From Candidatus Bathyarchaeota archaeon (GTDB lineage: Archaea; Thermoproteota; Bathyarchaeia; Bathyarchaeales; Bathyarchaeaceae), in the NCBI GenBank assembly GCA_963697165.1, contig CAVOMX010000011.1:1-64000 (forward strand): a stretch of 64,000 nt of DNA, given 5' to 3'. The number at the start of each line of letters is the position of its first letter. Position 1 is the stretch's first letter. Below the pieces are notes generated by a model that saw only the letters and a program-made list of their open reading frames with translations, had not been told where the DNA came from and made no database searches. Of the stretch, positions 16,613 to 64,000 are shown piece after piece. A program made the translations under genes and the position numbers.

Positions 16613-17767
16613 ATGCCTAGAATATGCCTTGTCACGCACTTTTTTCCACCCCACATGGGAGGCATAGAAAAGGTATCTTATGAACAGAGCAAAAGATTGA
16701 CAGAATCAGGCTACGAAATAGATGTTTTAACCAGCAAAATAGGAGGACAAAACGAGCATCCCGCAAAAGGAATTCGAGTTGTCACATATCCAAGCATAAA
16801 ACTTGCTGAAAGATTTGGTGTACCTTACCCGATTCCTACAATAAAAGCATACAAAAAGTTTGCACAGGTAATAAGTAAGTGCGATTTAGTTCACGCTCAT
16901 GGACATGTCTACATGTCATCATGCCTTGCGGGGAAGCTCGCCAAGAAATACAAGAAACCATTCATAGTAACCCAACACAACACATTCATCGACTACCAGT
17001 CATGGCTGAACATAATGGAAAAAATGAACGATTTTACTATAGGCAAATCAGTTTTGAAACATGCCGACCGCATACTTACAGTCAGCAAAGAAACAATGAA
17101 ATACGTTCTAAAACTAGGCGCAGACAAATCAAAAACGTCAGTAATTTACAACGGCGTTGATACAAACCGTTTTCACTCTGTAAAAAAAGGAGAGAGTAGA
17201 AAAAAACTTGGTCTGCCCAAAGAACGAAGGATAATCTTTAGTGTGCGGAGGCTAGTCTACAAGAATGGCGTAGATACCTTAATAGAATCAGCTCATCTTG
17301 TGGCACGAGACAATCCTGACGTATTGTTTGTTGTTGTAGGAAAAGGTCCAAGCAGAAAACTTATCGAAGACCGCATAAAAGAATTGGGAATCGAAAACAA
17401 CATCAAATTAACAGGATTCGTTCAAGATGAACTGTTACCAGTATACTACGACGCCGCTGACTACTTTGTTCTCCCCTCTGCTTCAGGCGAAGGATTACCG
17501 CTGGTTCTTTTTGAAGCCATGGCGTGCGGACTACCAGTAATCGCAACAACAGTTGGAGGAACACCAGAAATAATTAATCACCTGAAAAACGGGGTTCTTG
17601 TGCCCCCAAAAAATCCGGAGGCAATAGCCGAGGCGCTGTTAAAACTGCTAGCAGACGAAGAATTAGGAAAAAGCATAGGCGAGGAAGCAAAGAGGACTGT
17701 TGAGGACACGTTTACGTGGGAAGAAAATGTTCGAAAACTGAAAGAAGTATATAATGAATTCATTTAG
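16613..17767 (+). CDS. Glycosyltransferase family 4 (GT-B)
   Basis: FPPHMGGIE, IYNGVD, EGLPLVLFEAMACG. Confidence 0.92.
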   Translation: MPRICLVTHFFPPHMGGIEKVSYEQSKRLTESGYEIDVLTSKIGGQNEHPAKGIRVVTYPSIKLAERFGVPYPIPTIKAYKKFAQVISKCDLVHAHGHVYMSSCLAGKLAKKYKKPFIVTQHNTFIDYQSWLNIMEKMNDFTIGKSVLKHADRILTVSKETMKYVLKLGADKSKTSVIYNGVDTNRFHSVKKGESRKKLGLPKERRIIFSVRRLVYKNGVDTLIESAHLVARDNPDVLFVVVGKGPSRKLIEDRIKELGIENNIKLTGFVQDELLPVYYDAADYFVLPSASGEGLPLVLFEAMACGLPVIATTVGGTPEIINHLKNGVLVPPKNPEAIAEALLKLLADEELGKSIGEEAKRTVEDTFTWEENVRKLKEVYNEFI

Positions 17768-17839
17768 TACAGAAACTATTTTATACAAAGAACCGGAAGT
17801 CTTCAAGTAAAAATAAAAAATTGACAAGAGCTGCCCCCT

Positions 17840-18526
17840 TTGACCAAAGAAGATCCTGTAGTGTCCGTAGTTATACCGGCATTTAAAGAAGGAAAAACTA
17901 TACGTAAAGTCATACAAGACCTCAAGAGTTACTCAAGCTACAATACAGAAATAATAGTTGTTGACGGCTATTCCAATGACGGAACCGAAGAGATCGTTAA
18001 AGAGGAAAACGCCCGGTTTGTGAGCGAATCAAGGATAGGATATGGAAGGGCAATAAAAACAGGAATAGACCATGCAAAGGGCGATGTATTGGTGATAATA
18101 GACGCCGACGACACATACCAAGCAGATGCCATAGACAAGCTAGTCCAACCGTTACTGAAGGGCGAGGCTGATGTCTGCTTGGCTTCAAGACTTGGAGGAA
18201 CCATCTTACCTGGGGCAATGCCAGGCATGAACTTGTTTGGAAACCGAATGTTCACATCAATGTACAACGTGATTTATGGACAAAATGTCACCGATACACA
18301 GACAGGATTTCGGGCATTAACGAAAAAAACGATTGAATGCCTAGACTTGCACTCGGATGGCATGGGTCTTTCAACAGTTTTTCTAACAGAAGCTGCGAAG
18401 AGAGGCTTTAAAATCACAGAGTTTTCCACAGTCTACCGACCAAGAGACGACAATAGTCGATCCAAATTGAACAGATTAAAGGCCGGATGGGAAATCCTCA
18501 GAATTCTTTTATTTGGACAAGCCTAA
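17840..18526 (+). CDS. Glycosyltransferase family 2 (DPM1-like)
   Basis: VVIPAFKE, VVDGYSNDGT, DAD, DTQTGFRA. Confidence 0.92.
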   Translation: MTKEDPVVSVVIPAFKEGKTIRKVIQDLKSYSSYNTEIIVVDGYSNDGTEEIVKEENARFVSESRIGYGRAIKTGIDHAKGDVLVIIDADDTYQADAIDKLVQPLLKGEADVCLASRLGGTILPGAMPGMNLFGNRMFTSMYNVIYGQNVTDTQTGFRALTKKTIECLDLHSDGMGLSTVFLTEAAKRGFKITEFSTVYRPRDDNSRSKLNRLKAGWEILRILLFGQA

Positions 18527-18557
18527 ATGTAAACAGGTTAGCTCACCGTTTCAGGGG

Positions 18558-19118
18558 ATGATTAGGTTGAAGAGAGATCAACATAAGAACTTCATGGAAA
18601 AGAAAATCAAGAGAACAGGAAAGGGCACGAAATCCGGTTCATACAGCAGTGAAGAAAAAACAATAATTATTACAATTTTGGTAGCGCTTGTTATTATAGG
18701 TGCGCTCTTAGTAAATCTTGTATTCTTCACGCCCGTAGAAACAGAACCGTTTTCCGCGATATATTATCTAGATTCAGAAAAACAGATAACGAACTTGCCA
18801 AAAACGGTAGTTTTGGGTGAGAACAGCACGTTCTCGTTATGGGTTGGAGTTGAAAACCAGAATTACACAATGATTGATTATCAAGTGTGGATTAAGATGG
18901 ATGATGGAAAAGGACTGTTGAATCATACTTCAACAGAATACATACAAAGTTTTGAGAAAACATTAGCACACGGAAAAATTTGGGAGTTTCCGGTAACGAT
19001 AAACATAGAACAACTGGGACTCAATAGGATTAGCTTTGAATTACGGTTCTTCAATGGAACGGCGAATAAATTTCAATATTCAGGAAAATGGGTCAGCCTT
19101 TCAGTTGAAGCACTTTAA
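18558..19118 (+). CDS. DUF1616-like membrane-anchored protein
   Basis: Single TM, EPFSAIYYL, LWVGVEN, C-terminal WVSL; start uncertain (18558/18567). Confidence 0.6.
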   Translation: MIRLKRDQHKNFMEKKIKRTGKGTKSGSYSSEEKTIIITILVALVIIGALLVNLVFFTPVETEPFSAIYYLDSEKQITNLPKTVVLGENSTFSLWVGVENQNYTMIDYQVWIKMDDGKGLLNHTSTEYIQSFEKTLAHGKIWEFPVTINIEQLGLNRISFELRFFNGTANKFQYSGKWVSLSVEAL

Positions 19119-19289: not shown

Positions 19290-20228
19290 TTGAAAGCATT
19301 CAAGGAACAAGAAGTTGTGGTTACTGGCGGCGCTGGCTTCATAGGCTCTAGCCTCTGTAAAACACTGCTAGAGCAGGGCGCCAAAGTAACTGCATTCGAC
19401 AATTTATATTCAGGAAAAATCGATTTGATAAAAGACCTAATGGATAAGGGCCTCAACTTTGTGCAGGGCGACATAAGAGACCCAGAGGCAATAGAGAAAG
19501 CAACAAAGAATTGTAAAGTCATTTTTCATCTGGCAGCCCAAACAAGCGTTCCATTTTCTATGGAAAATCCCAAAGAAGACAGCGAAATTAACGTTATTGG
19601 AACATTGAATGTCCTTGAAGCCACCAGAAAAGCTGGCGCCAAAATGCTCTTCACGTCATCATGTGCAGTTTATGGCAACCCAGAGAAAAGACCGACACCT
19701 GAAACATATCCGACACATCCAATCGCGTTCTATGGGTTAACAAAACTGCTTGGCGAGAACTATTGTCGGTTCTACCAAGAAACTTATGGTTCAGAAGTTG
19801 TTATGTTCCGCATATTCAATGTTTATGGCCCAAACTGTCACGGTGCAATATACGATTTCCTCAACAAACTGCGGAAAACACCCGACAAATTGGAGATTCT
19901 GGGAACAGGAAAACAATCCAGAGACTTCGTCTATGTATCGGATATGGTAGATGTACTACTCAAGGCTGCAATTACTCCTGAAGCTGCAGGACAAGCCTTT
20001 AACATTGGCACAGGAACAACAACCTCCGTGGCAGAGTTAGCGAAGATGATTGTGGAGATTCTGGGATTGGAGAATGTTGAGATATATTTCAAAGGTGGAC
20101 AAGCGTGGGCGGGAGACATGGATATAACATTGGCAGACAACAGCAAAGCAGCGAACATATTGCAGTGGAAACCTCAAGTGAGTTTGAGGGAAGGACTGAA
20201 AAAATTAATAAGCTCAAGAAGATATTAG
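19290..20228 (+). CDS. NAD-dependent nucleotide-sugar epimerase/dehydratase
   Basis: TGGAGFIGS, HLAA, YxxxK (YGLTK), FNVYGP, RDFVYV. Confidence 0.93.
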   Translation: MKAFKEQEVVVTGGAGFIGSSLCKTLLEQGAKVTAFDNLYSGKIDLIKDLMDKGLNFVQGDIRDPEAIEKATKNCKVIFHLAAQTSVPFSMENPKEDSEINVIGTLNVLEATRKAGAKMLFTSSCAVYGNPEKRPTPETYPTHPIAFYGLTKLLGENYCRFYQETYGSEVVMFRIFNVYGPNCHGAIYDFLNKLRKTPDKLEILGTGKQSRDFVYVSDMVDVLLKAAITPEAAGQAFNIGTGTTTSVAELAKMIVEILGLENVEIYFKGGQAWAGDMDITLADNSKAANILQWKPQVSLREGLKKLISSRRY

Positions 20229-20239: not shown

Positions 20240-21097
20240 ATGGTTTCGCTTAAGAAAAGGCTGAAAGCCGTTATTATGCTTCTTCGGCCACCTTACTGGC
20301 TCATGACGGGCGGGCTCTCAGTTTTAACAATGTTTACTCTGTGGAGAGGCTTGCCAGAAACTGATCTATTGGCATTAGTTGTTTTGTCAGCAATCTGCAT
20401 TAGTTCTGGCGGTTTCGCGTTCAACGATTACATTGATCAAGAATCAGATGCAATCGTCAAAAAGAACAGACCTATTCCTTCAAAAAGTTTAGCGCCGTGG
20501 CATGCTCTTCTGGCAGCTGTAATTTTGTTTACCATTGGACTATTAGCAGCCCTAAGAATCAACTGGCTGTGCTTTGGAATTGCTCTCATGGATATTGTTC
20601 TTCTTGTAGCGTATTCTAGGGTTATAAAGAAGTCTGCCGGTTTCTTCGGAAGCTTTCTCATGGGTTTTCTTATAGGAACATCGTTTGTTTATGGTGAAGT
20701 TGCCCTGTATGGAACTTTCACAGTTACTTCTTTATCTTTGTCGTTTATGAGCATGGGCAGTATCGGCGGAAACATATTGCGGGATGTATTAAGTTTAGAG
20801 GGAGACCAGAAAGCGGGTTATGCCACCTTGGCAGCTAAGAGTGGTCCAAAATTCGCCACTAAGGTTGGAGCTGTTTTCTTCTTGCTCAATGTAATAGGCT
20901 CCCCAATCCCTTTTCTAGTGGACGCAGTCGGTTATGCATACTTGATTCCGATAATCATCTGGGATATAATACTCGTCATTTCAGGATTTTCTCTCCTCAA
21001 AAACCAAGATATTAACTTGGTAAAGAAATACGAAAGATTAGTGACTAGGACAATGATATTGATACCAATCGCATTAATCTTAGGGGCTTTGACTTGA
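20240..21097 (+). CDS. UbiA-family prenyltransferase, DGGGP-synthase-like
   Basis: LLRP N-terminus, NDYIDQESD...RPIPS motif, multiple TMs; second acidic motif divergent (RDVLSLEGD). Confidence 0.8.
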   Translation: MVSLKKRLKAVIMLLRPPYWLMTGGLSVLTMFTLWRGLPETDLLALVVLSAICISSGGFAFNDYIDQESDAIVKKNRPIPSKSLAPWHALLAAVILFTIGLLAALRINWLCFGIALMDIVLLVAYSRVIKKSAGFFGSFLMGFLIGTSFVYGEVALYGTFTVTSLSLSFMSMGSIGGNILRDVLSLEGDQKAGYATLAAKSGPKFATKVGAVFFLLNVIGSPIPFLVDAVGYAYLIPIIIWDIILVISGFSLLKNQDINLVKKYERLVTRTMILIPIALILGALT

Positions 21098-22590
21098 AGG
21101 AATATAAGATTCTCAGGGAAACTTTCAGCGTTTGCCCAGTTTGCCTAAAAAAGATAAAAGCACAAGTCGCAGAAAAAGACGGAAAAGTTGTGATTCTAAA
21201 GGAGTGCAGCGAGCATGGAAGCTTCAATGACACCTACTGGTCTAGAGCAGACATTTACCATAAGGCTGAAGATTACAAAAAACCCTCTTCCAAACCGTTT
21301 CAGGACAACTGTCCTATGGGGTGTGGAGTAAAAGACTGCGCTAATCATGTGTCCACAACAGTCATGGCGGTAATCGACGTAACTAATGAGTGCGATTTAA
21401 GGTGCCCTATATGCTTCGCAAACGCATCAAAGCCACCTGATGTGTATAGACCAACTTTTGAAACCATTCATAATATGCTAAATTTTCTGAAGAAACAGGA
21501 TCTACCGCCTCTAGCGGTAATGTTTGCTGGTGGAGAACCCACAGTCCGCGAGGACATAGTTGAAATCGTGAAGATGGCTCATGAAATGAAATTCATGATT
21601 CTTCTGGCAACAAACGGCATTAGAATGTCTAATGACCCTGAATTGGTCAGGAAACTAAAGGAAGCAGGATTGAATATAGTGTATCTGCAGTTTGATGGAC
21701 TCACGGATTCACCCTACGAGAAACTGAGAAATGCAAAACTGCTTCCGAATAAGCTGCGGCTTGTTGAACTTTGCAGAGAACATGACATAGAAATTATTCT
21801 GGTTCCAACCCTGCAGGGCGGCATAAACGACAACGAAGTGGGAGATATGATCAGATTCGCCGCAGAAAATGTGGACATAATAAGGGGAATAGTTTTTCAG
21901 CCAATGTCATTTACTGGAAGAACCGCGGAGTATGTCTCTAGAAAAAACAGGATCGACAATTCGCTCCTTGCCCAGATAATTGAAGAACAGACCAAAGGGA
22001 TGATCAGTGAAGAGGACCTGTTTCCGGTTTCAGTAATGGTTCCTCCCCTGAAAGTTATGAACAGTTTCTTAGCTAAAACATGGCCCCCATTCACGCCAAC
22101 ACCCTATTGTGGACTATGGAACTGGATTTTAATTTCCAAACAAGGAAAAGAAAGGTTTACACCAATTAACCGTTTTCTAAATTTCGAAGCCTTCATGTCC
22201 GACCTGAAAGCCCTGAACAAGCTGATTGAGAAACGAAAAATCAGTAAAATCGGAATTTATCTAAGATTGCTCTTTGCTGCCTTTCGTTCATTAGATTGGA
22301 GAAAAGTGCAACGAGAAGCTGGTCTTCTGAATGCAGTTAAGACTTTGATTAGTATACATACTGACCCATCATACGATTCTCTTGGATACATCAGACGAAG
22401 ACTATTGTTAATTGGATGTATGGCATTCATGGATCCCTACACTTTCGATGTGGAACGGGCACACCACTGCGTCATTCACTACACAACTCCAGATAACCGA
22501 ATCATACCATTCTGCGTATACAACATGTTCTACCGAAAGCAAATAGAAAAACAATTCAGTACCCCACAAATCAGCACCAAACACAAATAG
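21094..22590 (+). CDS. Tetraether lipid synthase (Tes/GDGT-MAS, MJ0619-family) homologue, radical SAM
   Basis: SVCPVC...CSEHG rubredoxin-like start, CPxxC..CxxH, IDVTNECDLRCPICFANA, YLQFDG, CMxFMDxYxFD, CVIHY.TPD.RIIPFC. Confidence 0.85.
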   Translation: MKEYKILRETFSVCPVCLKKIKAQVAEKDGKVVILKECSEHGSFNDTYWSRADIYHKAEDYKKPSSKPFQDNCPMGCGVKDCANHVSTTVMAVIDVTNECDLRCPICFANASKPPDVYRPTFETIHNMLNFLKKQDLPPLAVMFAGGEPTVREDIVEIVKMAHEMKFMILLATNGIRMSNDPELVRKLKEAGLNIVYLQFDGLTDSPYEKLRNAKLLPNKLRLVELCREHDIEIILVPTLQGGINDNEVGDMIRFAAENVDIIRGIVFQPMSFTGRTAEYVSRKNRIDNSLLAQIIEEQTKGMISEEDLFPVSVMVPPLKVMNSFLAKTWPPFTPTPYCGLWNWILISKQGKERFTPINRFLNFEAFMSDLKALNKLIEKRKISKIGIYLRLLFAAFRSLDWRKVQREAGLLNAVKTLISIHTDPSYDSLGYIRRRLLLIGCMAFMDPYTFDVERAHHCVIHYTTPDNRIIPFCVYNMFYRKQIEKQFSTPQISTKHK

Positions 22591-22701: not shown

Positions 22702-24142
22702 TTATGTAAGAAGTTTGTAGTAGTGTTCAATCAGGTGATGGTAATGTTCCGGGGGCATGAGGGAACGGAATGCTCTATCAACAACTTCGCTCAGAGCAGG
22801 ATGAATGTGCATAGAATCAAGTATGGGTTTTGGGCTTTGTTCCGCGGTGTACATTAACGGTATGATTTCGTGGATTAGAACAGAAGCGTACGGTCCTATG
22901 ATGTGGGCTCCAAGAATCTTGAGTGTGCCCCGTTCAACAATAATTTTAACGAAATAGTCTTTTGCATCCATGGCTTCTCCTTTTGCCGTATCCTCGTATC
23001 TGTGAAATCCAATTAACAACTTATCCGCTCCATGTTTTTCTATCGCCTCTTTTTCTCCTAGTCCAACTGATGCAATCTCGGGGTAAGTGAAAACGGCGTG
23101 GGGCACCGCATGGTAATCTGCCTTCACATTTCTCTTCAACACCGCATTATAGTATACGATAGCTGATTCGTAGTTAGCTACATGTTTGAAGGGATAGTTG
23201 CCGTTGGCGTCTCCGAGAGCCCAAACGTTAGGCTGAGAAGTCTCCAAATACTCGTTAACGACAATCCATCCATGGCTGTCAGTTTCTATTCCACCTTTTT
23301 TGGGGTTGAGTATGTCTGAGAGGGGCGCTCTTCCGGTGGCAATCAATAGTTCGTCTGCGGTTACCTCTAACTTTTCTTTGGTCTCTCGGTTGACGGCAAC
23401 TAGCATTTTCTTGCCCTTTGAGGTCAATTTTGCCTCCTGAACGTCATGGTTAGTATATATTGTCACATGTTTTCCAAGTTCTCTATTGGCTAATGCCGAA
23501 ACCTCAGGTTCTTCTTCGGGTATAAACTGGGGATTTCTGCCGATAACTGTGACCTTTGCACCCATAGATGCGAGAAAGTGACTGTATTCTGCGGCTATGT
23601 ATCCGCCGCCTACGATTATAACGCTCTTGGGCAGTTCATTTATCGTAATGATTGTGTCGCTTGTAAGGTAACCAGTTTTCTCGATTCCCATTTATGGCGG
23701 GTATAGCGACTTTCGATCCTGTGCCCAGAACAATCATCTTAGCGGTGATGGTTTCTTTGCCAACCTTCAGCGTGTATGGAGCAACAAACTCTGCAGGTTC
23801 ATGATAGTAATCTACATGTTTGGATTGAGAAAGCCCTTTGCGGATATTGTTTATGTCATTGTAGATTATGGTTCTCATTCTTTCCATGACAGTCTTGAAG
23901 TCCACATTTTTTATTTCAGAGTCGATTCCAAACGTTCTTGCCTTTTCAATTGTTCTCACCAACTCCGCGGGGTAAAGAAGAAGCTTAGAGGGGATACAGC
24001 CCCTTGTTAAGCAGATGCCGCCCGGTTCATCCTTGTCTATGACAGCTGCTTTGATCTTAGGGTTCTCGCCAATCATTGCTTCCACAATACTCATTGCAGA
24101 ACCCGTGCCTATAGAAATTAAATCGTATTGTTTCATATACAA
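22702..24142 (-). CDS. Dihydrolipoyl dehydrogenase-like pyridine nucleotide-disulfide oxidoreductase; +1 frameshift at ~23688
   Basis: GGICLTRGCIPSK, GGGYIAAE, WALGD, HIHPALSE. Confidence 0.88.
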
Positions 24143-24493: not shown

Positions 24494-24797
24494 GTATTTT
24501 CACCAATGTCTGTTTTACACAATTACTAGAGAAACGGTTTTGGCGTGGAATCACATATAAACTTTGCCAAACTGCACTCTTCAGAGTGTTGACAAAAAAA
24601 GGCGTGCATATTTATAGACCAGACGCGGTGCAGGCAGAAGATTTTAAAAGTTGCAAAACATTAAAACAGGAAAACACTCCACAAGAGACAACAAAAGGAA
24701 TTCTCACAAAGCATGGAGGAAAATCAGTCGACAATTCCTTGGGTTACGCCATTAAGAAGCTTGGTTAAAAAATGAAAGACGGAGAAATCAAAAAAGA

Positions 24798-26086
24798 ATG
24801 ACAAAAAAACACACTGAAAGGTCAGCTGTTTACGAAAAAACAATGCACTGGCCACCTTTCACGTATCGAGACTATCCTGAAGTTGCACCTGAGACACTCC
24901 AAGCATTCATGGACATGTTAGGAACCGAGAATACCAGCAGAGAAAAGAAAGAATTGCAGCCATGGATCCCTTTCTGCAGCCTAAAGTGTAACTTCTGTTA
25001 TTTCCCAACAGAACTGATGTCTAACAACCAAATGGGAAAATACATTGCTGCGATGAAAAAATCTCTTAAAATGTATTCGGAAACAGAATACATTAAGACA
25101 AGCGAGTTCTCCGAGATATACTTGGCAGGTGGAACCCCAAGCATCATGTCCACTGAACAGACAATTGAGCTTTTAGTGTTCTGTGAAAAAAACTTTGACG
25201 TAAGTGAGGATTGCGAAATTAAAGTGACAGGTTGCACTCACGATTTTGACTACAAAAAACTTGAGGCGCTTTCAGAGTATGGAGTAGCCCAACTGGATTT
25301 GGGGATACAGACCTTTGACGACGATGTCCGAAGGCTTGTTAATCTGACGGGATAAGGCAAGAAACGCTGAGGAAACAATCAAGACTGCACATAAGCTGGG
25401 ACTTCGTGTAAGCATTGATTTAATGTATAATCTTCCCGGACAGAATTTGAAAGTCTGGAGCAGAGACATTCAAAGAGCCCTAGAGTTGGATGTGGAAAGC
25501 GCCGACTGTTATGCCTTGGACGTTTATCCTGGAACTAAGCTATCTCAACAGCTTCAGTCTGGAGATTTACCTCCGATGGGAGACCAAGAGGCTGAAACAG
25601 AGATGTACCTTGAAGCTAGTAGTACCTTCAAGTCGGCAGGATACGAAAAGACTTGCCACAACCGATTCTCCAGAATACCAGAAGACTTCCAAGAACCATG
25701 CATGGAAATCCTTGGCACAGGTGCAGGTTTCTTCATGGGGAACCTAGGAAAATTCTCTTATGTGGACATTGAACCTTCCAAAGCGTATATTGACGCCGTC
25801 AACCATGGAAAGTTTCCCATATCAAAACTTTCGATGGCCTCGAATGATGATGACTATGAGGAAGATGATGATGCGGCTGTATATTCGCCTGCCCGTCAAT
25901 AAACAGGAGTTCAAAAGTCGCTTCGGAAAATTGCCAGAAGAAGCTTTTGAAAATACAATCAATAGACTAGTAAATAAGGAACTGATTGAGGTTGATGATC
26001 AGGAGATAAGGTTGACCAAGTTGGGTGACGTGTGGAGAATCAATGTCTGTTGGGAGTTTTCTTGCCCACCAGAAGAAAAACAATGA
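24798..26086 (+). CDS. HemN-like (class C) radical SAM protein, copy 1; two +1 frameshifts (~25347, ~25852)
   Basis: PFCSLKCNFCYF, GGTPS, GIQTFDD, DLMYNLPGQ, HemN-like C-terminus; colinear with intact paralogue at 35262. Confidence 0.85.
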
Positions 26087-26101: not shown

Positions 26102-26941
26102 TTGATGGTGAAGGCGTTAAGGATCTTTAGGGGATTGATGGCTTTTCTCACAGCTATCCCCGTGAAGATGGATGAGAGCTTTTTGGATATCTCCGCTCGC
26201 TACATGTTCCTGTTTCCGGTGATAGGAGCTTTGATCGGAGTTCTTGTCGGCGTATACGCTCGCTTCACAAACACTGTTTTGTTTCTTCTCTTCGGTGCCA
26301 TAAACAATGTAGTCTTTTCAGGCGCCCACGAAGTTTTTTTTGATTTTGTAGCCAAGGGACTGGCAAGTGCCATGACTATCGCGTTTCTTCTTGTTGTTAT
26401 AGGGCTTCAGCACACAGACGGGTTAGTTGATGTGGGCAATGCTTTAGGCATAAGAAAGGCGTCTCTTAAAGAGAAAGTGGATATTGCTCATGTGTGGACG
26501 GTTACCAGAACAGGAGCATTTCTTGCCATCCTCGTTTCCTTCTTTACTTTTTTGATTATTTTCTTGACAAACACTGATGTTGTCATTCAGTCACTCATAG
26601 TTGCCGAGATTTCAGCGAAACTGGCAATGGTTACTACTGGCTGGCAAGGCACATCCCCGCCGCCCCGCTTCTATGAAAACAGGTGGGAAAAGGGAAGGAG
26701 CTTCATTGATTCCATTAAAAACAAACATGGACGATACGCGATTTCATTAATTATCTCGTTTTCTGTCAGCGTTGTCTTGTTTGGTTTCAGTGGCGTTTTT
26801 GCGGTAGCGGCTGGAATACTGGTGGGCAGCTTAATGATATTTGTGGGCAAGCAGGTTTTTGGGGGAGTAAATGGGGATGTATTCGGCGCCACTAACGAGA
26901 TAGCTAGAATGGTTGTGTTATTTGTGCTGCTGGTGATTTGA
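26102..26941 (+). CDS. cobS: Adenosylcobinamide-GDP ribazoletransferase (cobamide synthase)
   Basis: FLTAIP, FPVIG, GLQHTDGLVD, GGVNGDVFGATNE. Confidence 0.92.
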   Translation: MMVKALRIFRGLMAFLTAIPVKMDESFLDISARYMFLFPVIGALIGVLVGVYARFTNTVLFLLFGAINNVVFSGAHEVFFDFVAKGLASAMTIAFLLVVIGLQHTDGLVDVGNALGIRKASLKEKVDIAHVWTVTRTGAFLAILVSFFTFLIIFLTNTDVVIQSLIVAEISAKLAMVTTGWQGTSPPPRFYENRWEKGRSFIDSIKNKHGRYAISLIISFSVSVVLFGFSGVFAVAAGILVGSLMIFVGKQVFGGVNGDVFGATNEIARMVVLFVLLVI

Positions 26942-33568: not shown

Positions 33569-33571
33569 TTG

Positions 33572-56125: not shown

Positions 56126-57583
56126 ATGCGTATTTGTTTGATTAATCCGCCACGCATTCATCCAAAAGGTTGGGGAAAACCAACGGTGTATCAGCCGTGG
56201 GGAATAGCATACGTAGCGGCTGTACTAGAAAAGCAACATAAAGTAAGCATTATAGATGTTCCCACAGAAGGCTGGAGAAATCTTGAACAGATAGATGAAA
56301 CAAAATATCGGGTAGGTTTAACAAACAAAGAGATAAGCTGACAGAATAAAACAGTTGTCACCCGATATTGTTGGAATAAACATCCCATTTTCTGGTTGGT
56401 CAAAATACGCATTTGAGGTTGCTGACACAGTAAAAAGCATTGACAAGGATATCACCACAGTGCTGGATGGGTTACATCCATCTGCAAGATCTGTAGAATG
56501 TCTTTCAGATTCAAACGTAGATTTTGTTGTAAGAGGAGAAGGAGAACAGACAATATCAGAGTTAGTAGGCGCACTAGAACAAGGCAAAACTGAAGATCTT
56601 GAAAAAATAAAAGGAATCGGCTTCATCAAAAACGGGAAGACAATTATTACACCTCCAAGACCAGGAGATTCAAGATTTAGATTCTCTGCCCTTTCCGGCA
56701 AGGCATCTACTTCCGATGGAAACATACTTTGCTGCAGTAAAGGAAAACCCCATAAGAGGAGTAATCCACAAACGGTGGGCAATAATGACCAGCAGCAGAG
56801 GTTGCCCGCACGAGTGCATCTTTTGTTCTAATCATATTGTTATGGGAAGAAAGTGGCGGGCTAGAAGCCCAGAGAAAGTGGTCGAGGAAATCGAACAGTT
56901 AGTTGACACCTACAAAATTGAACAGATTGACTTCTACGATGACAACATGACGCTGAAAAAGAAGCGGGTAATAGAAATTTGTGATTTGATAAAAGAAAGG
57001 GGTTTAGACATCGAATGGTATGTTCCAACAGGTGTTAGAGCGGACACTCTGGATGAAGAGCTTTTGACAAAAATGAAGGCGTCTGGCTGCAGGGGATTAC
57101 GGATTGCTCCCGAGTCTGGCGTTCAACGTGTTGTGAATCAGATCATAAAAAAGAACCTGAACTTGAAAGATGTAGAAAAAGCTGTTGTTTTGATCCAAAA
57201 AAGTGGGAATCAAGTTAGGCGTTTTCTTTATACTGGGGCTTATCGGCGAAACAAAAGAGGATATAAAAGAAACAATAAATTATGCATATAAACTGAGAAA
57301 ACTAGGAGCCGAAAATTTCCACTTCAGCATAGCTACCCCTTTATATGGAACAGAACTCTATGAGCAGGCTATGCGCGGCGGTTTCTTAAGGGACGGCTTT
57401 AGTGATGAAGCTTTAGCTGCGGCTGAACCTCTGATTGAAACTGCAGAGTTTACGGCAGACGAGTTGCGTGAATTATGTTTGCAAGCAAATTTGGTGAATC
57501 AGACTATTACTCAGGATAAACTATTGAAGGCAATTCGTAACCCAAAGAAAGCGATAAAGATGTTATTGAGAAGAAGTGAGTGA
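56126..57583 (+). CDS. Cobalamin-binding radical SAM protein #4; three +1 frameshifts (~56336, ~56664, ~57193)
   Basis: LINPP, PWGIAYVAA, GEGE, SSRGCPHECIFC, ATPLYGT. Confidence 0.88.
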
Positions 57584-57717: not shown

Positions 57718-59115
57718 GTGACGAAGATGGGTAGAAAACTTAAGACATCATTGGTCAACCCACCACCCCTAAAAGGAGTTTATCGGCATCAGCTTTATCT
57801 GCCCATAGGCCTAGCCTATCTGGCAGCAGTCCTTGAAGAAAATGGACATGAAGTATCTGTTATAGATTGTCCAGCGCTAGAAATGACCCATGAAGATTTG
57901 AAAGCAAAGTTATCTTCCATTCAACCTGATTTGATTGGCATCACGTCTATGACGCCAACGATACAGTCGGCTCTTCAATCCGCGCATGTTGCAAAAGAAG
58001 CATGCTCTGAATCACTGGTTGTATTGGGAGGTCCACATGCCACTTTTATGGATGAACAAGTTCTTGTTGAAGAAGAGGCAGTGGACATAGTTGTGAGGAG
58101 CGAGGGCGAACAAACCTTACTAGAGCTAACACAAAACGTATCCAACCCGAAAGGACTCAACAGCATTGATGGAGTAACATTTAGAAAGGATGGACAGATT
58201 GTTCGCACACCTAACAGGCCATTTATGGAAAAACTTGACGAACTACCCCTTCCGGCATACAAATACTTCCCGCTAGAAAAATACAGGCTTTTTGGGAGAA
58301 AGATGCTTCCAATAATAACAAGCAGAGGCTGCCCCTCCCAGTGTTCGTTTTGTACGTCAGCTCAAATGTTTGGGAAAGGCTTCAGGGCGCGGAGTCCAAA
58401 AAACATCGTGGATGAGCTTGAGTGGTTAAGAGACGAGCATGGAGCTGATGCTTTCACATTTTATGACGACACGTTTACGCTTAATAAGAAAAGGGCAATC
58501 AAGATTTGTGAAGAAATCAAGAGTAGAAAGATTGGTCTTCCATGGGATTGTCAAACTAGAGTTAGCACAGTTTCAAGAGAGATTCTGCTCAAAATGCGGG
58601 AAGCAAACTGTCAACAGGTCTTTTTTGGGGTTGAATCAGGGTGTCAAAAGATTCTGGATGCTGTGAAAAAGGGAACTACGGTTGAACAAAACGAGAAAGC
58701 GATTAGATTAGCGAAGGATGTTGGTTTGTTCGTCGCCGTTTCCGTGATGATTGGATATCCTGGAGAGACCAAAGATATGTTACAAGAGACTGTTGATCTT
58801 ATCAGAAAAGCGGAGCCCGACGATGTATACATATGTGTGGCGACGCCGTATCCCGGCACTGAGCTTCGCAGACTTGTTGAAGAGAATGGATGGGAGATGT
58901 CTAACGATTGGGGACGCTACGACACAATAACGCCTGTTTTTGCGAATCCTAACTTGTCGGCAGAGGATATCAGAAAATTACGAACCTCTTTCTATAACAG
59001 TTTTTATTCTCCAAAATATGTGCTCCGTCACCTGTTTAAAAGAAACTTCTATAGTCGAGTGATGGCTCGAACTGCTGTGAATCATCTGCTCTGGAGAATA
59101 AGGAACAGTTTCTAA
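57718..59115 (+). CDS. Cobalamin-binding radical SAM protein #5
   Basis: LVNPP, PIGLAYLAA, GGPH, TSRGCPSQCSFC, ATPYPGT. Confidence 0.93.
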   Translation: MTKMGRKLKTSLVNPPPLKGVYRHQLYLPIGLAYLAAVLEENGHEVSVIDCPALEMTHEDLKAKLSSIQPDLIGITSMTPTIQSALQSAHVAKEACSESLVVLGGPHATFMDEQVLVEEEAVDIVVRSEGEQTLLELTQNVSNPKGLNSIDGVTFRKDGQIVRTPNRPFMEKLDELPLPAYKYFPLEKYRLFGRKMLPIITSRGCPSQCSFCTSAQMFGKGFRARSPKNIVDELEWLRDEHGADAFTFYDDTFTLNKKRAIKICEEIKSRKIGLPWDCQTRVSTVSREILLKMREANCQQVFFGVESGCQKILDAVKKGTTVEQNEKAIRLAKDVGLFVAVSVMIGYPGETKDMLQETVDLIRKAEPDDVYICVATPYPGTELRRLVEENGWEMSNDWGRYDTITPVFANPNLSAEDIRKLRTSFYNSFYSPKYVLRHLFKRNFYSRVMARTAVNHLLWRIRNSF

Positions 59116-59144: not shown

Positions 59145-59885
59145 CTACTTTTTTGGCAGCATCGATTTATGGAACAGCATAATAATTGTTGGTGTTGCAG
59201 TGTATACAGGCTTTAAACGTTTAACTTCACATAAATCGAATTTTGCACCGAGCATCTGCGTTAAAGTTTCTACGGTGAAATAGTATTTGTGTGCGTCATA
59301 ACGCAAACCCTCTATCCCTTCAGGCGTGGATACTATCAAATGTCCATCAGTTTTGAGAACTCTGTAAGCCTCATCTACGAAACTGTGCGGATTCCATAAG
59401 TGCTCCATTATTTCAGAAGCTAAAACAACATCAAAAATGTTTGAGGCAAAGGATAATCGTTCTGCGTCGCCAGCTACAGCTAATAGACCTTCACAGCTGT
59501 GAGCTTGAACAGCAACTGTTGGCAGGTCTACGGATGCTACGTTGTTGCCCATTTGTGATATGCGTTCGCCGATGATCCCGTCTCCAGAGCCAACATCTAG
59601 TATGTCCAAACCGTTTCCCAGACGACCAACCATGTCAGAAATGAGTTCTATTCTCTCCTGATTAAATGGGCGTGTGCGTGTATCGTGAAGAGCCTCCATC
59701 AGTGCATTGTATGCGCGCTCTGAGTCATATTTCTGCCACTCCACCCACATCCGCTTACTCTTGTTCCTAAACTTGTAGCGGGTTTCTCTTATGATGAGAT
59801 GCTTCAACTGGGAAGGATTTGATAGCAAATAAGCAAACCCGTGAACTTGACTTTTAATCAGCTTTAACATGGACGTCTCCATCAT
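59145..59885 (-). CDS. Class I SAM-dependent methyltransferase
   Basis: ILDVGSGDG, GDAERL, FDVVLASEIMEHL, VSTP. Confidence 0.88.
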   Translation of the reverse strand: MMETSMLKLIKSQVHGFAYLLSNPSQLKHLIIRETRYKFRNKSKRMWVEWQKYDSERAYNALMEALHDTRTRPFNQERIELISDMVGRLGNGLDILDVGSGDGIIGERISQMGNNVASVDLPTVAVQAHSCEGLLAVAGDAERLSFASNIFDVVLASEIMEHLWNPHSFVDEAYRVLKTDGHLIVSTPEGIEGLRYDAHKYYFTVETLTQMLGAKFDLCEVKRLKPVYTATPTIIMLFHKSMLPKK

Positions 59886-59939
59886 TGTTATTCTATCTTA
59901 AGGGATACACAAGATTCAATGCCGGTACAACATATGAAA

Positions 59940-61031
59940 CTAACGCTGCAGACACGCCTGAGCTTCCTTCAGCAAAGATATAATCGGTAAGTTGTATGGA
60001 CATTTTGGTTCGCATTCGCCGCAATCCGAACATTTGGTGACGTCAACTTCAAGTCCGCTATATAGTTTTTTTGCCCAAGTCTTCAACCCGTAAGTATTGT
60101 AGAGAATATGAAACCTGAGAATAGCTGCTATGTCAAGGTTTTGAGAACAAGGCAAACAGAGTCCACAGTCTCGGCAGTGTTTCTCATCAAATTGCACTCT
60201 AAAACAGTCTTTTTCATCCGTTGTTAACCCTACGTAATTTTCTCCCACTTTAACGGCGGTCTCAACTTCTTCAACTGATTTGCATCCTGTGACAACCACG
60301 GATACATCCTGCGCCAAAACAAACCTGAGGGCACTGCTTACCATTGAACGTGTATCCTGTCCCAACAGAGCCTTCAGTCCGGGATCGTCAGAAAGTAAAG
60401 ACAATGAAGGCTCATATAAGCAGGTTATGAGCTTAGAGGTCTTGGCTGACAAAGGCTTCATTATGGCAATACCGATGTCTAACTCTTTTGTTAGAGGAAC
60501 CAACTCATCCAGAGCTTGCCTTGTGACAATGTTAAGGGGCACAAGTACAGTGTCGAACTCGTTTGTTTTGATGGCTTTAATCAACACGCGAGGCTTGTGG
60601 CCTGTAATGCCGATGAAGTCTACCAAGCCTTCAGAACGAGCCTTTTTACACATCTCCAGTGAACCACTTGGACCCATTGCATGTTCAAGAGTTTTTTCGT
60701 CATCTATCCCATGAAGCTGAATCAAATCCAATCTGTCCGTTTTTAGTCGGCGCAAACTACTTTTGAAGTCAGCTAACGATTCGCTTTTCGTTCTTGAGGC
60801 AGTCTTTGTAGCTAAAAAGCACTTATCCCTTACATCATGTAATGCTGCTCCAATCTTTTCTTCGCTGTCCCCATCCAGTTTTGCAGTGTCGAAATAGTTT
60901 ATTCTCAAATCATAAGCTCTTTGGATGACCTTGACTGCTTCATCCATACTTAGCTGCGAAATCCATGTGCCGCCAAAACCGACAATGGACACCTGAAGAC
61001 CTGTTCTGCCAAGAGTTCTTTTCTGCAACAA
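59940..61031 (-). CDS. Aldo/keto reductase with a C-terminal 4Fe-4S dicluster
   Basis: LGRTGLxVS, NYFDTA, LATK, QLH; CRDCGLCLPC and CSDCGECEPKCP. Confidence 0.9.
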   Translation of the reverse strand: MLQKRTLGRTGLQVSIVGFGGTWISQLSMDEAVKVIQRAYDLRINYFDTAKLDGDSEEKIGAALHDVRDKCFLATKTASRTKSESLADFKSSLRRLKTDRLDLIQLHGIDDEKTLEHAMGPSGSLEMCKKARSEGLVDFIGITGHKPRVLIKAIKTNEFDTVLVPLNIVTRQALDELVPLTKELDIGIAIMKPLSAKTSKLITCLYEPSLSLLSDDPGLKALLGQDTRSMVSSALRFVLAQDVSVVVTGCKSVEEVETAVKVGENYVGLTTDEKDCFRVQFDEKHCRDCGLCLPCSQNLDIAAILRFHILYNTYGLKTWAKKLYSGLEVDVTKCSDCGECEPKCPYNLPIISLLKEAQACLQR

Positions 61032-61092: not shown

Positions 61093-62480
61093 TTAGCTGA
61101 AGCTTAGTTTGGCCATCATGGTTCTTTTAAGCCACGCCAAGGCAGTTTTGGTCGTCGAGTAGCCGTATACTCCTCCTTTGCTGAACGCACGAATAATGTA
61201 AGTTGGACGAAGATAGAATTTTCGATGCGCCATATCATGCAGTTCTCTTAGTTCATTCATGCTCATTGTTGGCGTCTCGAAAATAGGTGTAGCAGTGTCA
61301 TATTTGTTGAAGTCTGTTATCTTTATCCAACCCATCTTTTTCACGTAATCGTACATGGGAGTCCCAGGATAGGGCGTAGCAATGTAAACGCCTATCTCGT
61401 CAGATTTTATTCGCTTCAAAAGGTTTATGCTTTCCATGGCGGTTTCGCGGGTTTCACCAGGAAAACCAAGAATCATACTTGCGACAGTCATCAGACCAAC
61501 TTCGTTTGCCCACTTGAAAGCATTAAAAGTCTGTGTGAGCGAGATTCCCTTGCCCATCGCTTTTATAACCTGTTCCGATCCTGCCTCGACGCCAAACCAT
61601 ACGGCAATACAACCCGCATCCTTCATTTTCTGAAGCAAATCCTTCGTTACCATGTCAACACGGGTTTCGCAATCCCACTTAATCTTTAAGCCTCGCTTCA
61701 GGATTTCGTTACATATTTCCTCGGTTCTGGATTGGTCTACAGTGAATGCGTCATCATAGAAGGTGTATTGATCTTCGCCATATTTTTTATAGAGAAACTC
61801 AAGTTCGTCCACAACCTTTTGTGGGCTTCTCATCCGATACTTTCGACCAAACATCCTAACTGCAGAACAGAAGTCACACCAGAATGTACAGCCCCTGCTT
61901 GTCATAACTGGAAAAATAATTTTTCCATACTTTTTGAAGTGTTCAATAGGCCAAAGATGAAAGGCAGGATAAGGTAGACTTTCAAGGTCTTCGATGTGAG
62001 GACGGTCTGGATTCTTTATGATATCGTCGCCTTTTCGGCAAGTTGTGCCCACAACATCATGAAAACTCTTGCCATTTTCCACCTTTTTGACTATCTCAAG
62101 AAGTGTAGTTTCGCCTTCTCCCCTCACGATTATATCCAGCTGCGGGCATTCATTTAGAGCCTCCTCGTCCCAGAAGGTGGCGTGTGAGCCTCCAATAATT
62201 GTTAAGCAGTCGGGTAAAACGTCCTTAGCCACTTTTATTATGTTAAGGGCGGACTTGTAGGTGAGAGTTGTAGAAGTTAATCCAACAATGTCAGGTTTAC
62301 GTTTGCCAAGTTCTTTTTCCACATCGCTTAATGTGAGGTGTAGAGCTTGGCAGTCGATGACGTTGACGTCGTACCCTTTTTCTCTAGGACTGCGGCGAGG
62401 TATCCTAGACCAAGAGGCATGAATGGTGGGTGCTGGTGAGCGCCTGGTGGGTATGGTGGATTTACAAGAGTTACTTGCAT
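61093..62480 (-). CDS. Cobalamin-binding radical SAM protein #6; -1 frameshift at ~62378
   Basis: True N-terminus MQVTLVNPPYPPGAHQHPPFMPLGLGYLAA from ATG 62480 in another frame; TSRGCTFWCDFC. Confidence 0.9.
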
Positions 62481-62676
62481 CCTTCACACTTTCCTAAAAT
62501 ATTTTCGTTTAATAAGACAAAGAGGGCTATTAATAAGGTTAGTGCGGAATATTTTCCAGAAACCCAAGAGGTTATGGATGAAAAAATAGTAAAAAAGATT
62601 GAACAAAAATGATGCATAAGCAAGCCATAAAATGATGAAGGAACATCTTAAATGACAAAGCTTAGAGGTACAACTG

Positions 62677-64000
62677 ATGAAAACACTTCTCATTAATCCG
62701 CCACAGACATTTTTTCCGGGTTCAGATATTCCAGCAGCTAATCTGCCTTTAGGTTTAATGTACATAGCCGCGGTTTTAGATGAGGCAGGATATAATGTGG
62801 AAATTTTAGATGCATTCATGACTGATTTGGCGTTCCGAAAAAAGGGTGATATAACAGAAGTTGGAATGTCTTACGAAAAAATAAGAGAAGAAATACAGAG
62901 AAGAAATCCAGACATTGTGGGTATAGCAAATCCGTTCACAAGCCAAGTAGAGCATGCGATTAAAGTTGCTGATATTGTCAAAGAAATAGACTCTAGCATT
63001 TTAACTGTGGTTGGAGGTCCTCATGGAACCGTAGTGCCAGTAGAATTCTTGGAAGCGGCAAAGAATGTTGACATTGTAGCAATCGGTGAAGGCGAATACA
63101 CAATGTTAGACATTTTAGGGTTCTTTGAGGGAAACAAGAAAATCAATGATATACAGGGGATTGCTCACCGTATGGCGGGTAAGGTAGTGTTGAATTCGCC
63201 AAGAGAATTTAACAAAAATTTGGATGTGTTGCCGTATCCTGCTTACCATTTAGTGAATATGGAAAAATATCTTAATCCTAAAACGATAGAATATCGCAGT
63301 TTTAAGAAAAGAGCATTATCGATGGTGACCAGCAGGGGATGCCCTTTCAATTGTAGCTTCTGTTCGGTTCATCTGCACATGGGAAAGACGTTTAGAGCGC
63401 ACTCGGTAGATTATGTTGTAGATCATATTGAGCATTTGGTAAACAAATACCACGTTAAGACGATATACTTTGAGGATGACAACCTCACATTTGACATACA
63501 GAGATTTGAGGCAATTTGTGACAAGATCATTGAAAGAGACATCAAATTCCAGTGGGAAACACCGAATGGAGTAAGGGCAGACTATTTGACGTTAGATCTT
63601 TTGAAGAAAATGAAAAAGACAGGATGCCAAAGCGTTTTTGTTGGCGTCGAATCTGGTGACCAGTATGTTTTGGATAACATAATTGGTAAGAGCCTCAGAT
63701 TGAAGAATGTGGTCAAGTTTGCTAAGATGTGCAAGAAAATTGGGCTGAGAACTGGGGCTTTTTACATTATTGGTTTTCCCGGGGAAACGAAAGAAAACAT
63801 GAGAAATACTGTCGAGTTTGCCCTTATGTTGAAGAGAAAATATGATGTTGGCATGCACCTTCTTTTTGCAACTCCGTCATACGGCACAAGACTGTACGAT
63901 GAATGCAAGAAAAATGGGTATATCCGAGGCAGTTTGACGCCGAGGGCTTTTGCTGAGGTTAGACAAAACTGGGGATTGCCGTTGATAGAAACCGAAAAAT
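62677..64000 (+). CDS. Cobalamin-binding radical SAM protein #7; runs off the window, absent from the ORF track
   Basis: MKTLLINPP...PLGLMYIAA, GGPH, GEGE, TSRGCPFNCSFC, GVESG; GAGGT RBS. Confidence 0.9.
   Translation, partial: MKTLLINPPQTFFPGSDIPAANLPLGLMYIAAVLDEAGYNVEILDAFMTDLAFRKKGDITEVGMSYEKIREEIQRRNPDIVGIANPFTSQVEHAIKVADIVKEIDSSILTVVGGPHGTVVPVEFLEAAKNVDIVAIGEGEYTMLDILGFFEGNKKINDIQGIAHRMAGKVVLNSPREFNKNLDVLPYPAYHLVNMEKYLNPKTIEYRSFKKRALSMVTSRGCPFNCSFCSVHLHMGKTFRAHSVDYVVDHIEHLVNKYHVKTIYFEDDNLTFDIQRFEAICDKIIERDIKFQWETPNGVRADYLTLDLLKKMKKTGCQSVFVGVESGDQYVLDNIIGKSLRLKNVVKFAKMCKKIGLRTGAFYIIGFPGETKENMRNTVEFALMLKRKYDVGMHLLFATPSYGTRLYDECKKNGYIRGSLTPRAFAEVRQNWGLPLIETEK

Follow-up and report, generated by a model that had tools for sequence, protein, structure and literature searches.

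The window analysed here, the first 64,000 nucleotides of contig C11 of a Bathyarchaeia assembly from marine sediment (G000, Candidatus Bathyarchaeota archaeon; 1.99 Mb, 81% complete), contains a gene island in which genes of radical S-adenosylmethionine (SAM) enzymes are mixed with genes for a second tetraether synthase (Tes2), a second prenyltransferase (UbiA2), sugar transfer and cobamide supply. The best explanation of the island, held with confidence and doubt in balance, is a co-inherited block for a second, specialised tetraether glycolipid, which would be made beside the ordinary lipids and with a cobamide supply of its own. Gene content, paralogy, motifs, co-occurrence and a Gms-like fold are direct observations; every substrate and product named below is one that we infer. 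Working numbers denote genomes (G), contigs (C) and loci (L), and R2 to R13 are the radical SAM genes listed in Table 1.

The proposed route would start with UbiA2, placing a geranylgeranyl ether onto an altered acceptor, while the epimerase, the polyprenyl-phosphate sugar transferases and the glycosyltransferases (GT) of the GT4 and GT-C types would provide the sugar head group. Tes2 would join the tails, the Gms-like R3 would cross-link them, and the Gmm-like B12 enzymes would methylate (or desaturate) the tails, the backbone or the sugar, with electrons supplied by the RnfD-ferredoxin, the DUF362 protein and the reductase-ferredoxin fusion. BtuFCD, DUF71, CbiZ, CobD, CbiB and CobY would lead to GDP-cobinamide, from which the ordinary CobS would make the cobamide. 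The divergent CobS of the island (CobS1) would act as a phosphotransferase, moving a phosphodiester-linked group from the nucleotide donor made by CobY onto the sugar head group.

Gene content and inheritance of the island

The 62 open reading frames (ORFs) of the window were scanned against the Pfam and NCBIfam profiles, and the inventory of the initial annotation was reproduced exactly. Between 21094 and the window end lie 13 radical SAM genes (one Tes, two HemN-like, three SPASM and seven B12-binding). The block also includes a UbiA, five glycosyltransferases, an NAD-dependent epimerase, two other methyltransferases (PEMT-like and class I), five cobamide genes (CobS-like, CobY, CobD, CbiZ and CbiB) and the Fe-S proteins DUF362, RnfD-ferredoxin and aldo-keto reductase-ferredoxin. 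These 13 genes, out of 38 PF04055 matches in the whole assembly, fall within 42.9 kb, or 2.2% of the DNA, where 0.8 would be expected (naive binomial p 7e-13, a value inflated by several local duplicates). The block holds 7 of the 11 above-cut-off B12-binding radical SAMs of the assembly, and the other four lie outside. The last gene of the window ends at 64161 and the block extends to about C11:92,600, adding a 14th radical SAM, a second CobS, MtrH with a corrinoid protein, btuFCD, a second DUF71, two GT-C-like proteins, a large beta-propeller protein, GT4s and an asparagine-synthase-like gene.

A single draw of 151 genomes from the class served to survey the conservation of the island. The synteny check proposed by the initial annotation found the genes kept together, not scattered, both in relatives within the genus and in a second family of the same order (f9), whose island proteins are only 40-60% identical. 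In five genus relatives the genes are rearranged and form one block (G003, G005, G018) or two blocks (G009, G024). UbiA2 (E<=1e-65), CobS1 (E<=3e-41) and the cluster-type R3 (at least 53%) occur in the same 21 of the 151 genomes, namely five of the window's genus and 16 of the 22 from the second family. The R12-type (E<=1e-132) and the R5-type are found in the same 21 and in G159 (22/151), and the R4-type in those 21, in G159 and in one further genome with a 36% match (23/151). Weaker matches were excluded: six canonical CobS, two UbiA at 2e-36, nine single B12 proteins near 1e-113 and 63 distant R3 homologues. All six markers are absent from the sister genus (2 genomes) and from 5 of the 22 second-family genomes.

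The invariant core consists of GT4-GT2-DUF1616, tes2-ubiA2-epimerase and cobS1-cobY, with epimerase-ubiA2 placed head-to-head with cobS1-cobY in 16/16 second-family loci. The core is usually followed by R3-DUF362, three glycosyltransferases, DUF4234-cobD and the B12 array. Genomes of the window's genus have a dihydrolipoamide dehydrogenase between tes2 and cobS1, in some cases accompanied by a HemN-like gene. Within the B12 array the gene order is shuffled and the copy number varies among relatives; the subclades R6, R10, R11 and R8/9/12 are orthologous and retained in both families.

This pattern bears on the simple accumulation of unrelated paralogues, listed as an alternative in the initial annotation. 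In this scenario, loosely gathered products of tandem duplication, or enzymes for lignin-derived aromatic compounds, would stand together and serve no single pathway. The local duplicates R8, R9 and R12 (56-70% identical), the shuffled order, the varying copy number and a 98% identical R5 copy on C8 agree with it, as does the lignin metabolism proposed for the B12 radical SAMs of Bathy-6 genomes, which have 7-20 each (PMC11697101; here and below, papers are cited for their accessible parts). Since six markers from unrelated families share one pattern of presence and absence in 21-23 of the 151 genomes, including joint absence from five second-family genomes and the sister genus, the loose accumulation of genes is unlikely; the retention of the R6, R10, R11 and R8/9/12 subclades in both families also stands against it. 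As an explanation of the whole island, accumulation without a pathway is very improbable.

Six of the 13 radical SAM genes are frameshifted (at 24798, 33572, 50210, 51840, 56126 and 61093). The gene of ValS (valine-tRNA ligase; 4357-6813, minus strand), an essential gene and hence a marker of assembly indel errors, is likewise in four frames or pieces. Among the indels listed (12 of 35, up to position 36400), the extra bases at 23686, 25346 and 25852 are absent from contigs of close populations. Because ValS is split too, the orthologues in relatives are whole and these extra bases are absent from other contigs, the radical SAM frameshifts are probably assembly indels. Pseudogene decay of the six split genes was considered and rejected on the same grounds.

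The second Tes and UbiA and the radical SAM enzymes

A Tes homologue is present in 72 of 81 genomes, and the cluster type in eight, six of which also have the canonical Tes. In a quick, unrooted tree, from which one cluster Tes below 400 amino acids (aa) was left out, the cluster Tes proteins (12 of 42 rows) are split from all others by a branch with full support. Tes2 reaches 506.7 bits against the NF045702 cut-off of 450, compared with 681 for the canonical Tes, and is 40% identical to canonical Bathyarchaeia Tes. It retains the rubredoxin CxxC..CxxH, the N-terminal cluster, the CxxxCxxC and the C-terminal cluster cysteines, and the cluster ligands C14, C17, C38, C73, C77, C82, C100/104/107, C339, C459 and C474 are found in 11-12 of the 12 rows. 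Alignment to 7TOL reveals equivalents of Met439 and Tyr459, which are named residues of Tes (PMC9433317). Tes2 therefore resembles the known Tes/GDGT-MAS (MJ0619; PDB 7TOL) in its score above the cut-off, in all ligands and in both residues, and is unlike it in being a second paralogue, in an operon with the epimerase and a second UbiA. Genomes with two copies of Tes have been described for 22 of 322 methanogens (PMC8941075). The canonical Tes and its usual TrmB-like neighbour were not found in G000; since the neighbour is absent as well, the lack of canonical Tes is probably an assembly gap.

The closest solved relative of UbiA2 is the digeranylgeranylglyceryl phosphate synthase (DGGGPS) 6M31, and the first acidic motif, NDxxD..D..RP, is intact. 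The protein stays below the DGGGPS cut-offs (151.6/296 for NF009521 and 166.7/269 for NF009523), and its second acidic motif is changed, with GGNxxRD instead of GRExxKD/G (GGNILRDVLSLEGD versus GREIVKDFEDMEGD); the canonical form is not found. UbiA2 forms its own clade and is 30% identical to the UbiA on C2, which scores higher (234.9/269) and is the stronger DGGGPS candidate. Together with this gene, geranylgeranylglyceryl phosphate synthase (GGGPS; C24), CarS (C25) and the geranylgeranyl reductases (GGRs; C14, C18 and C25) are all located off the island. The island was accordingly rejected as a core lipid operon, since it holds divergent second copies of Tes and UbiA and the genes for GGGPS, CarS and GGR are found on other contigs. 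The core-lipid assembly assigned to the region by the initial annotation falls with it. Its lipid reading is strengthened by the complete metal ligands of Tes2, by the Gms-like SPASM protein and by the 32-42% identity of the B12 enzymes to gms-adjacent proteins.

In the published description (bioRxiv 2023.10.20.563219, PMC11186832), Gms is homologous to AhbD and has an N-terminal domain of about 100 residues and six helices. The model of an intact R3 orthologue (470 aa; mean predicted local distance difference test, pLDDT, 72) has six N-terminal helices (7-14, 17-27, 37-46, 57-74, 78-86 and 88-104; pLDDT mostly 72-87), a radical SAM core and SPASM. As modelled, R3 has the anatomy of Gms, with an AhbD-like SPASM architecture, at least 400 aa and a six-helix N-terminus. 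Among 20 loci with R3 homologues in genomes without the island, 2 adjoin tes, 6 a Grs-like gene and 4 a B12 radical SAM; in G033 the homologue stands in gms-gmm-grs order. In another family (f13; L198, L200, L202), the gene after the Gms-like one is Grs-like and overlaps a GT28 glycosyltransferase, an arrangement that resembles calditol-type head-group chemistry.

The seven B12 enzymes combine B12-binding and radical SAM domains and exceed 400 aa (447-495 aa). Compared with three gms-adjacent proteins, R8, R9, R11 and R12 are 36-42% identical (E 1e-95 to 1e-126) and R6, R10 and R13 are 32-40% identical, all seven lying between E 1e-70 and 1e-126. The island is like the known gms-gmm(-grs) clusters (T. 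guaymasensis; PMC11214058, PMC11186832) in bringing a SPASM enzyme with a helical N-terminal extension and B12-binding radical SAMs into one neighbourhood. Unlike them, it has seven B12 enzymes instead of one and no Grs in the block, it adds the second Tes and UbiA, sugar transferases, cobamide genes and HemN-like and AhbD-like enzymes, and it is known from genes alone. Several Gmm2 copies occur in many Bathyarchaeota (PMC11214058), some of them on one scaffold according to the preprint; the accessible supplement tables of PMC11214058 have seven Bathyarchaeota rows and no list of Gmm2.

The cyclisation suggested by the initial annotation is not borne out, as the block has no Grs-type cyclase. 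None of the seven B12 enzymes belongs to a Grs-like clade (500-530 aa), and all fall outside the clade of a 525-aa protein on C22 and its gms-adjacent relatives, a clade that we take, from gene order, to be that of Grs. This Grs-like radical SAM (L048:9598-11175, G000:C22) lies off the island, about 8 kb from cobT/cobZ, near a paralogue of the 223-aa protein of the island. A B12 radical SAM of Bathyarchaeota has been proven to be a desaturase of glycerol dialkyl glycerol tetraethers (GDGTs; bioRxiv 2025.10.20.683597). The Ted-Hgs and Cgm/Pgm enzymes of that study resemble the island enzymes in being B12 radical SAMs, one of them bathyarchaeal, that desaturate or methylate GDGT tails; they differ in having been searched for at >=495-500 aa, with ted as a neighbour of grs and of an AttH hydratase, whereas the island enzymes have 447-495 aa and the Pfam scan of the 62 window ORFs gave no AttH/CrtC match. 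Sequence and fold searches of the PDB found no structure of Gms, Gmm or Grs, and with R11 and the C22 protein as queries, the homologue searches yielded nothing beyond close relatives that carry automatic names.

A special case of the specialised glycolipid concerns the butanetriol dialkyl glycerol tetraethers (BDGTs), which in Methanomassiliicoccus arise by SAM-dependent methylation of the backbone. In this case, the backbone methylase that gives butanetriol (and pentanetriol) tetraethers would be one of the seven B12 enzymes, and UbiA2 and Tes2 would be adapted to the backbone with the extra methyl group. The named relatives of R11 (70-87%) are labelled Ca. Bathyarchaeum or Bathyarchaeota, and Bathyarchaeum is the BIN-L-1/Bathy-8 genus (PMC10477458). 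A review places the Bathyarchaeum strain M17C in Baizosediminiarchaeum and treats BDGTs as the lineage-specific lipid biomarker of that genus (PMC12694404), whereas the island is also present in 16 of the 22 second-family genomes. A second DGGGPS-like enzyme with an altered second motif would suit an altered backbone, and the accessible text of a 2026 review on the radical SAM enzymes that act on lipids (PMC13459092) has no occurrence of "butanetriol". Against this, the known Gmm acts on tails, not on the backbone, four B12 radical SAMs are encoded away from the block, and no label in the CobS1 subfamily names Methanomassiliicoccus, the other producer. A link between butanetriol lipids and the island is plausible; the specific assignment of a backbone methylase is improbable.

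Several observations weigh against the second-glycolipid explanation. The label Gmm-like depends on the gms-adjacent proxies, which form their own clade in the tree, and not on characterised Gmm, Gms, Grs, Cgm or Ted proteins; the B12 radical SAMs outside the block (C18, C25) are likewise similar to these proxies (33-38%, E 1e-68 to 1e-92). The nearest NCBIfam models of the B12, SPASM and HemN-like genes are the tetrapyrrole enzymes BchE, AhbD and ChuW/HutW, and all these genes stay below every NCBIfam cut-off (top scores BchE 275/481, AhbD 225/500, HutW 202/400 and BzaD 113/450). In G000, R5 and the 14th radical SAM, which together with R7 have AhbD as their nearest model and are 48-50% identical to each other, are co-oriented with cbiZ/DUF71 and btuCD. 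The 21 island genomes represent two related lineages and not 21 independent events, so that the count is no statistical test. Physical linkage to the B12 genes is not strict, since the tes2-cobS1 core of G040, G151 and G131 lacks a B12 radical SAM gene over a distance of about 20 kb.

R5 of the second family has mostly RnfD-ferredoxin and a GT-C-like gene as neighbours (13/30 loci each). The 98% identical R5 copy of G000 (L054:7641-8717; G000:C8:10641-11717) stands without the C11 neighbours and reflects either a recent duplication or a strain mixture.

The divergent CobS and the cobamide genes

The five cobinamide-salvage genes reported by the initial annotation are present as cobamide genes; the CobS at 26102 lacks the HxDxxxDxxD motif. 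A point missed there is that this additional CobS, with the essential Asp changed to Asn, lies head-to-head with epimerase-ubiA-tes in 16/16 second-family loci. CobS1 scores 97 against the TIGR00317 cut-off of 110, while the ordinary CobS at C11:71895 scores 149, and it forms its own clade. The motif HxDxxxDxxN is found in 18 of the 21 cluster loci, the other three being unmatched by the pattern and one of them truncated. Among 150 library representatives of CobS, 117 have Asp (HxDxxxDxxD), 18 Asn, one Glu and 14 no motif. CobS1 keeps H80, D82, D86, GxxGDxxG and the multi-pass membrane fold; D89 is replaced by Asn, the MHD stretch after it is missing and the first hairpin is longer. In Salmonella enterica CobS, the D89A change abolishes function (no growth), and the loop is thought to bind adenosylcobinamide-GDP (AdoCbi-GDP; PMC8092220). 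Ten top hits of CobS1 are labelled Bathyarchaeota, canonical-type Methanosarcinales, without label, or bacterial (two, taken as mis-binning). A search of the ESM Atlas returned CobS clusters alone; the fold search with the CobS1 model gave no match above Z 5.7, a result that says nothing about the fold of CobS1.

The ordinary route is present in the same genome. The salvage set of BtuFCD, CbiZ, CbiB, CobD, CobY, CobS, CobT and CobZ is complete, with CobT and CobZ on C22, and in the stretches read, nine second-family genomes have both a canonical cobY-cobS-cobT set and a cobS1-cobY pair. In the genus, 4/4 genomes tested have no CobY besides that of the cluster, and in four second-family genomes a CobY of the canonical clade adjoins cobS1. 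Because of this single copy and this exchange, the cluster CobY probably still makes GDP-cobinamide. CobS1 is like the CobS of the archaeal salvage route (CbiZ-CbiB-CobD-CobY-CobS, CobT, CobZ), all of whose genes are in the genome, in belonging to the CobS fold family. It is unlike it in the Asn at D89, the missing MHD stretch, the score below the cut-off and the tie to lipid genes beside an ordinary CobS. CobS1, for its part, probably has a task different from the usual cobamide closure and linked to the lipid operon.

De novo corrin synthesis in G000 was considered and rejected, with one tetrapyrrole methylase found in this 81% complete assembly; G005 has a full de novo set of corrin methylases. 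No CobQ/CbiP above the cut-off was found in 5/5 genomes. The DUF71 or asparagine-synthase-like genes may fill the CobQ/CbiP step; DUF71 has been linked to B12 (PMC3541065). CbiA (cobyrinate a,c-diamide synthase) is encoded in the island of G003, G005 and G018 (L004:12708-14180, L011:7143-8552). An MtrH-like methyltransferase with a stand-alone corrinoid protein is found in the island of both families (L001:10380-11767, minus strand) and could load a methyl group onto the cobamide.

Such a concentration of cobamide genes allows a different role for the radical SAM enzymes. The cobamide/tetrapyrrole alternative of the initial annotation is retained in part, as corrinoid or tetrapyrrole chemistry suits the three AhbD-like and the two HemN-like genes no less than lipid chemistry does. 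In its full form, most radical SAMs would act on corrinoids or other tetrapyrroles and remodel salvaged rings, side chains or lower ligands, ubiA2-tes2 would be a neighbour through shared B12 regulation, and CobS1 would make cobamides that carry an uncommon lower base. The nearest curated models of the SPASM, HemN-like and B12 enzymes (AhbC/AhbD, NirJ, ChuW/HutW, BchE and BzaD/E) point in this direction; however, the island scores are all below the equivalog cut-offs, and each such family score is less than 60% of its cut-off. Cobamide genes are abundant in the island (cbiZ, cbiB, cobD, cobY, two cobS, two DUF71, btuFCD, and cbiA in three relatives), and spare amide-chemistry genes are present while CobQ is above cut-off in none of the five genomes; yet G005 also has its full corrin methylase set. 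The single-copy CobY and its replacement by the canonical clade are consistent with cobamide synthesis at cobS1, and BzaCDE homologues have been reported at a B12 locus in Bathy-6 (PMC11697101), whereas CobS1 is without the Asp that S. enterica CobS needs. The exact shared distribution of the second Tes and UbiA, and the head-to-head position of cobS1 and epimerase-ubiA2 at about 40% identity, are left unexplained. Altogether, this alternative seems doubtful.

The altered CobS1 also permits a combination of both chemistries. The enzyme would move cobinamide phosphate from AdoCbi-GDP not onto alpha-ribazole, as in cobamide synthesis, but onto the sugar hydroxyl of the UbiA2/Tes2 glycolipid. The product would be a membrane-tethered corrinoid, with a tetraether further cross-linked and methylated by the radical SAMs of the island. 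We know of no membrane-lipid-linked cobinamide, and the idea is inferred purely from the neighbourhood. The donor beside CobS1 is probably GDP-cobinamide, the ordinary CobS, CobT and CobZ are already present, and cobS1 is locked to the lipid operon. The retained H80, D82, D86 and GxxGDxxG, with D89 and the MHD stretch rewritten, would agree with a new acceptor; the changed loop, however, is the one tied to AdoCbi-GDP binding (PMC8092220), and the donor, not the acceptor alone, would be changed. Such a conjugate is quite improbable.

Gene map, further observations and meaning

Table 1. Features of the island within the window (scores are given as score/cut-off).
Feature	Coordinates	Strand	Evidence
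GT4 glycosyltransferase, core module	16613..17767	+	PF00534; adjoins tes2 in all second-family loci read
GT2, dolichyl-phosphate hexose transferase-like, core module	17840..18526	+	PF00535; NF041391 below cut-off
DUF1616 membrane protein, core module	18513..19118	+	PF07760; conserved beside tes2
NAD-dependent sugar epimerase/dehydratase	19290..20228	+	PF01370; head-to-head with cobS1 in 16/16 second-family loci
UbiA2, second DGGGP-synthase-like prenyltransferase	20240..21097	+	best PDB match 6M31, E 3e-23
Tes2, second tetraether synthase paralogue	21094..22590	+	NF045702 506.7/450
Dihydrolipoamide dehydrogenase, frameshifted; genus-specific insertion, possible electron donor	22702..24142	-	NF004947; extra base 23686
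R2, HemN/ChuW-like radical SAM, three frames	24777..26086	+	Pfam/NCBIfam
CobS1, divergent cobamide-synthase paralogue, HxDxxxDxxN not HxDxxxDxxD	26102..26941	+	TIGR00317 97/110, below cut-off; motif, tree
CobY-type nucleotidyltransferase	26938..27579	+	NCBIfam; single CobY in 4/4 genus genomes tested
CobD threonine-phosphate decarboxylase	27587..28726	-	TIGR01140 291.5/290.55
DUF4234-like membrane protein	28801..29424	-	Pfam; conserved beside cobD
GT2, GT2, GT4 glycosyltransferases	29583..32568	+	Pfam; conserved in both families
DUF362 Fe-S protein, frameshifted	32569..33568	-	Pfam
R3, Gms-like SPASM radical SAM, frameshifted; AhbD-like core and predicted six-helix N-terminal domain	33572..34985	-	model of intact orthologue
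R4, HemN/ChuW-like (class C-type) radical SAM	35262..36569	+	TIGR04107 202/400
PEMT/ICMT-like membrane methyltransferase; variable, paralogues elsewhere	37954..38664	+	Pfam
R5, AhbD-like SPASM, co-oriented with DUF71 and cbiZ	39958..41031	-	TIGR04545 213/500
DUF71/Dph6-like ATP pyrophosphatase and CbiZ amidohydrolase	41144..43158	-	Pfam/NCBIfam
R6, B12-binding radical SAM	43301..44644	-	Pfam
R7, AhbD-like SPASM	44840..45997	+	NCBIfam scores
Amidohydrolase-3 family protein	46192..47769	+	Pfam; conserved in island
CbiB adenosylcobinamide-phosphate synthase	49088..50074	+	TIGR00380 248.7/165.9
R8, B12-binding radical SAM, frameshifted	50210..51588	+	Pfam
R9, B12-binding radical SAM, frameshifted	51840..53226	-	Pfam
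Conserved 223-aa protein and RnfD-ferredoxin fusion (frameshifted)	53442..55706	-	Pfam
R10, B12-binding radical SAM, four frames	56126..57583	+	Pfam
R11, B12-binding radical SAM, closest to gms-adjacent proteins (40-42%)	57718..59115	+	Pfam
Class I methyltransferase and aldo-keto reductase-ferredoxin fusion	59145..61031	-	Pfam
R12, B12-binding radical SAM, N-terminal frameshift	61093..62487	-	Pfam
R13, B12-binding radical SAM, ends at contig 64161	62677..64000	+	Pfam

Several further features are found in and around the island. Between valS and gatA, the low-GC stretch 7273-12073 holds unannotated ORFs (237, 149 and 576 aa). The gene at 38792-39943 (plus strand) encodes a 383-aa protein without a Pfam or NCBIfam match and with at least six paralogues (37-46%) genome-wide. 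The 1.3 kb AT-rich segment from the amidohydrolase to cbiB (47770-49087) has one short reverse-strand ORF, is much shorter in relatives and is possibly a decayed insertion. Beyond the window, a protein with a CAP12/Pycsar-type TIR effector domain (L002:4359-5144, minus strand) lies between the 14th radical SAM and btuD; it is not at that place in G005 and G024. Paralogous Bathyarchaeia-specific membrane proteins (L001:12879-14939, L002:664-2964), conserved in the island, have a weak likeness to STT3/PMT_2 (GT-C), which is a lead only. Several copies of beta-propeller proteins of 850-980 aa (L001:4368-7244 and relatives in L011, L032, L148, L157 and L158) are spread between the B12 radical SAM genes; they may act as substrates or, by analogy with BtuG, bind corrinoids at the cell surface.

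The Rfam scan of the window gave no matches, and no tRNA was found. A scan for sigma-70 promoters and terminators (44 against 34.5 expected, and 20 against 17.4) is uninformative for an archaeon. In the RNA run X20, short contigs covered 26 of 30 bins; they make up a small share and may hold DNA, and they were not used as evidence of expression.

The enzyme families, the gms-gmm clusters and the expansion of B12 radical SAMs in Bathyarchaeota are already in print. In the literature covered, which did not include subscription papers, the accessible texts contained no paper on a second tes-ubiA operon, an Asn-variant CobS or a BDGT enzyme. Bathyarchaeia are among the most abundant archaea of sediments, and the genus of the window is the reported source of BDGTs. 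The island provides a short testable list, consisting of the seven B12 enzymes, the Gms-like protein and the second Tes and UbiA, all suited to expression in hosts that have served for Gmm and Ted. If true, a lipid-anchored corrinoid, or a CobS paralogue whose function lies outside cobamide synthesis, would represent new chemistry; in the case of the conjugate, a B12-like cofactor would be covalently anchored to a dedicated membrane-spanning glycolipid in two abundant lineages of Bathyarchaeia. Likewise, if true, a second tetraether route running in parallel, with a prenyltransferase and a tail-joining enzyme of its own, would be a novelty in archaeal lipid biology and would bear on the biomarkers of sediments.

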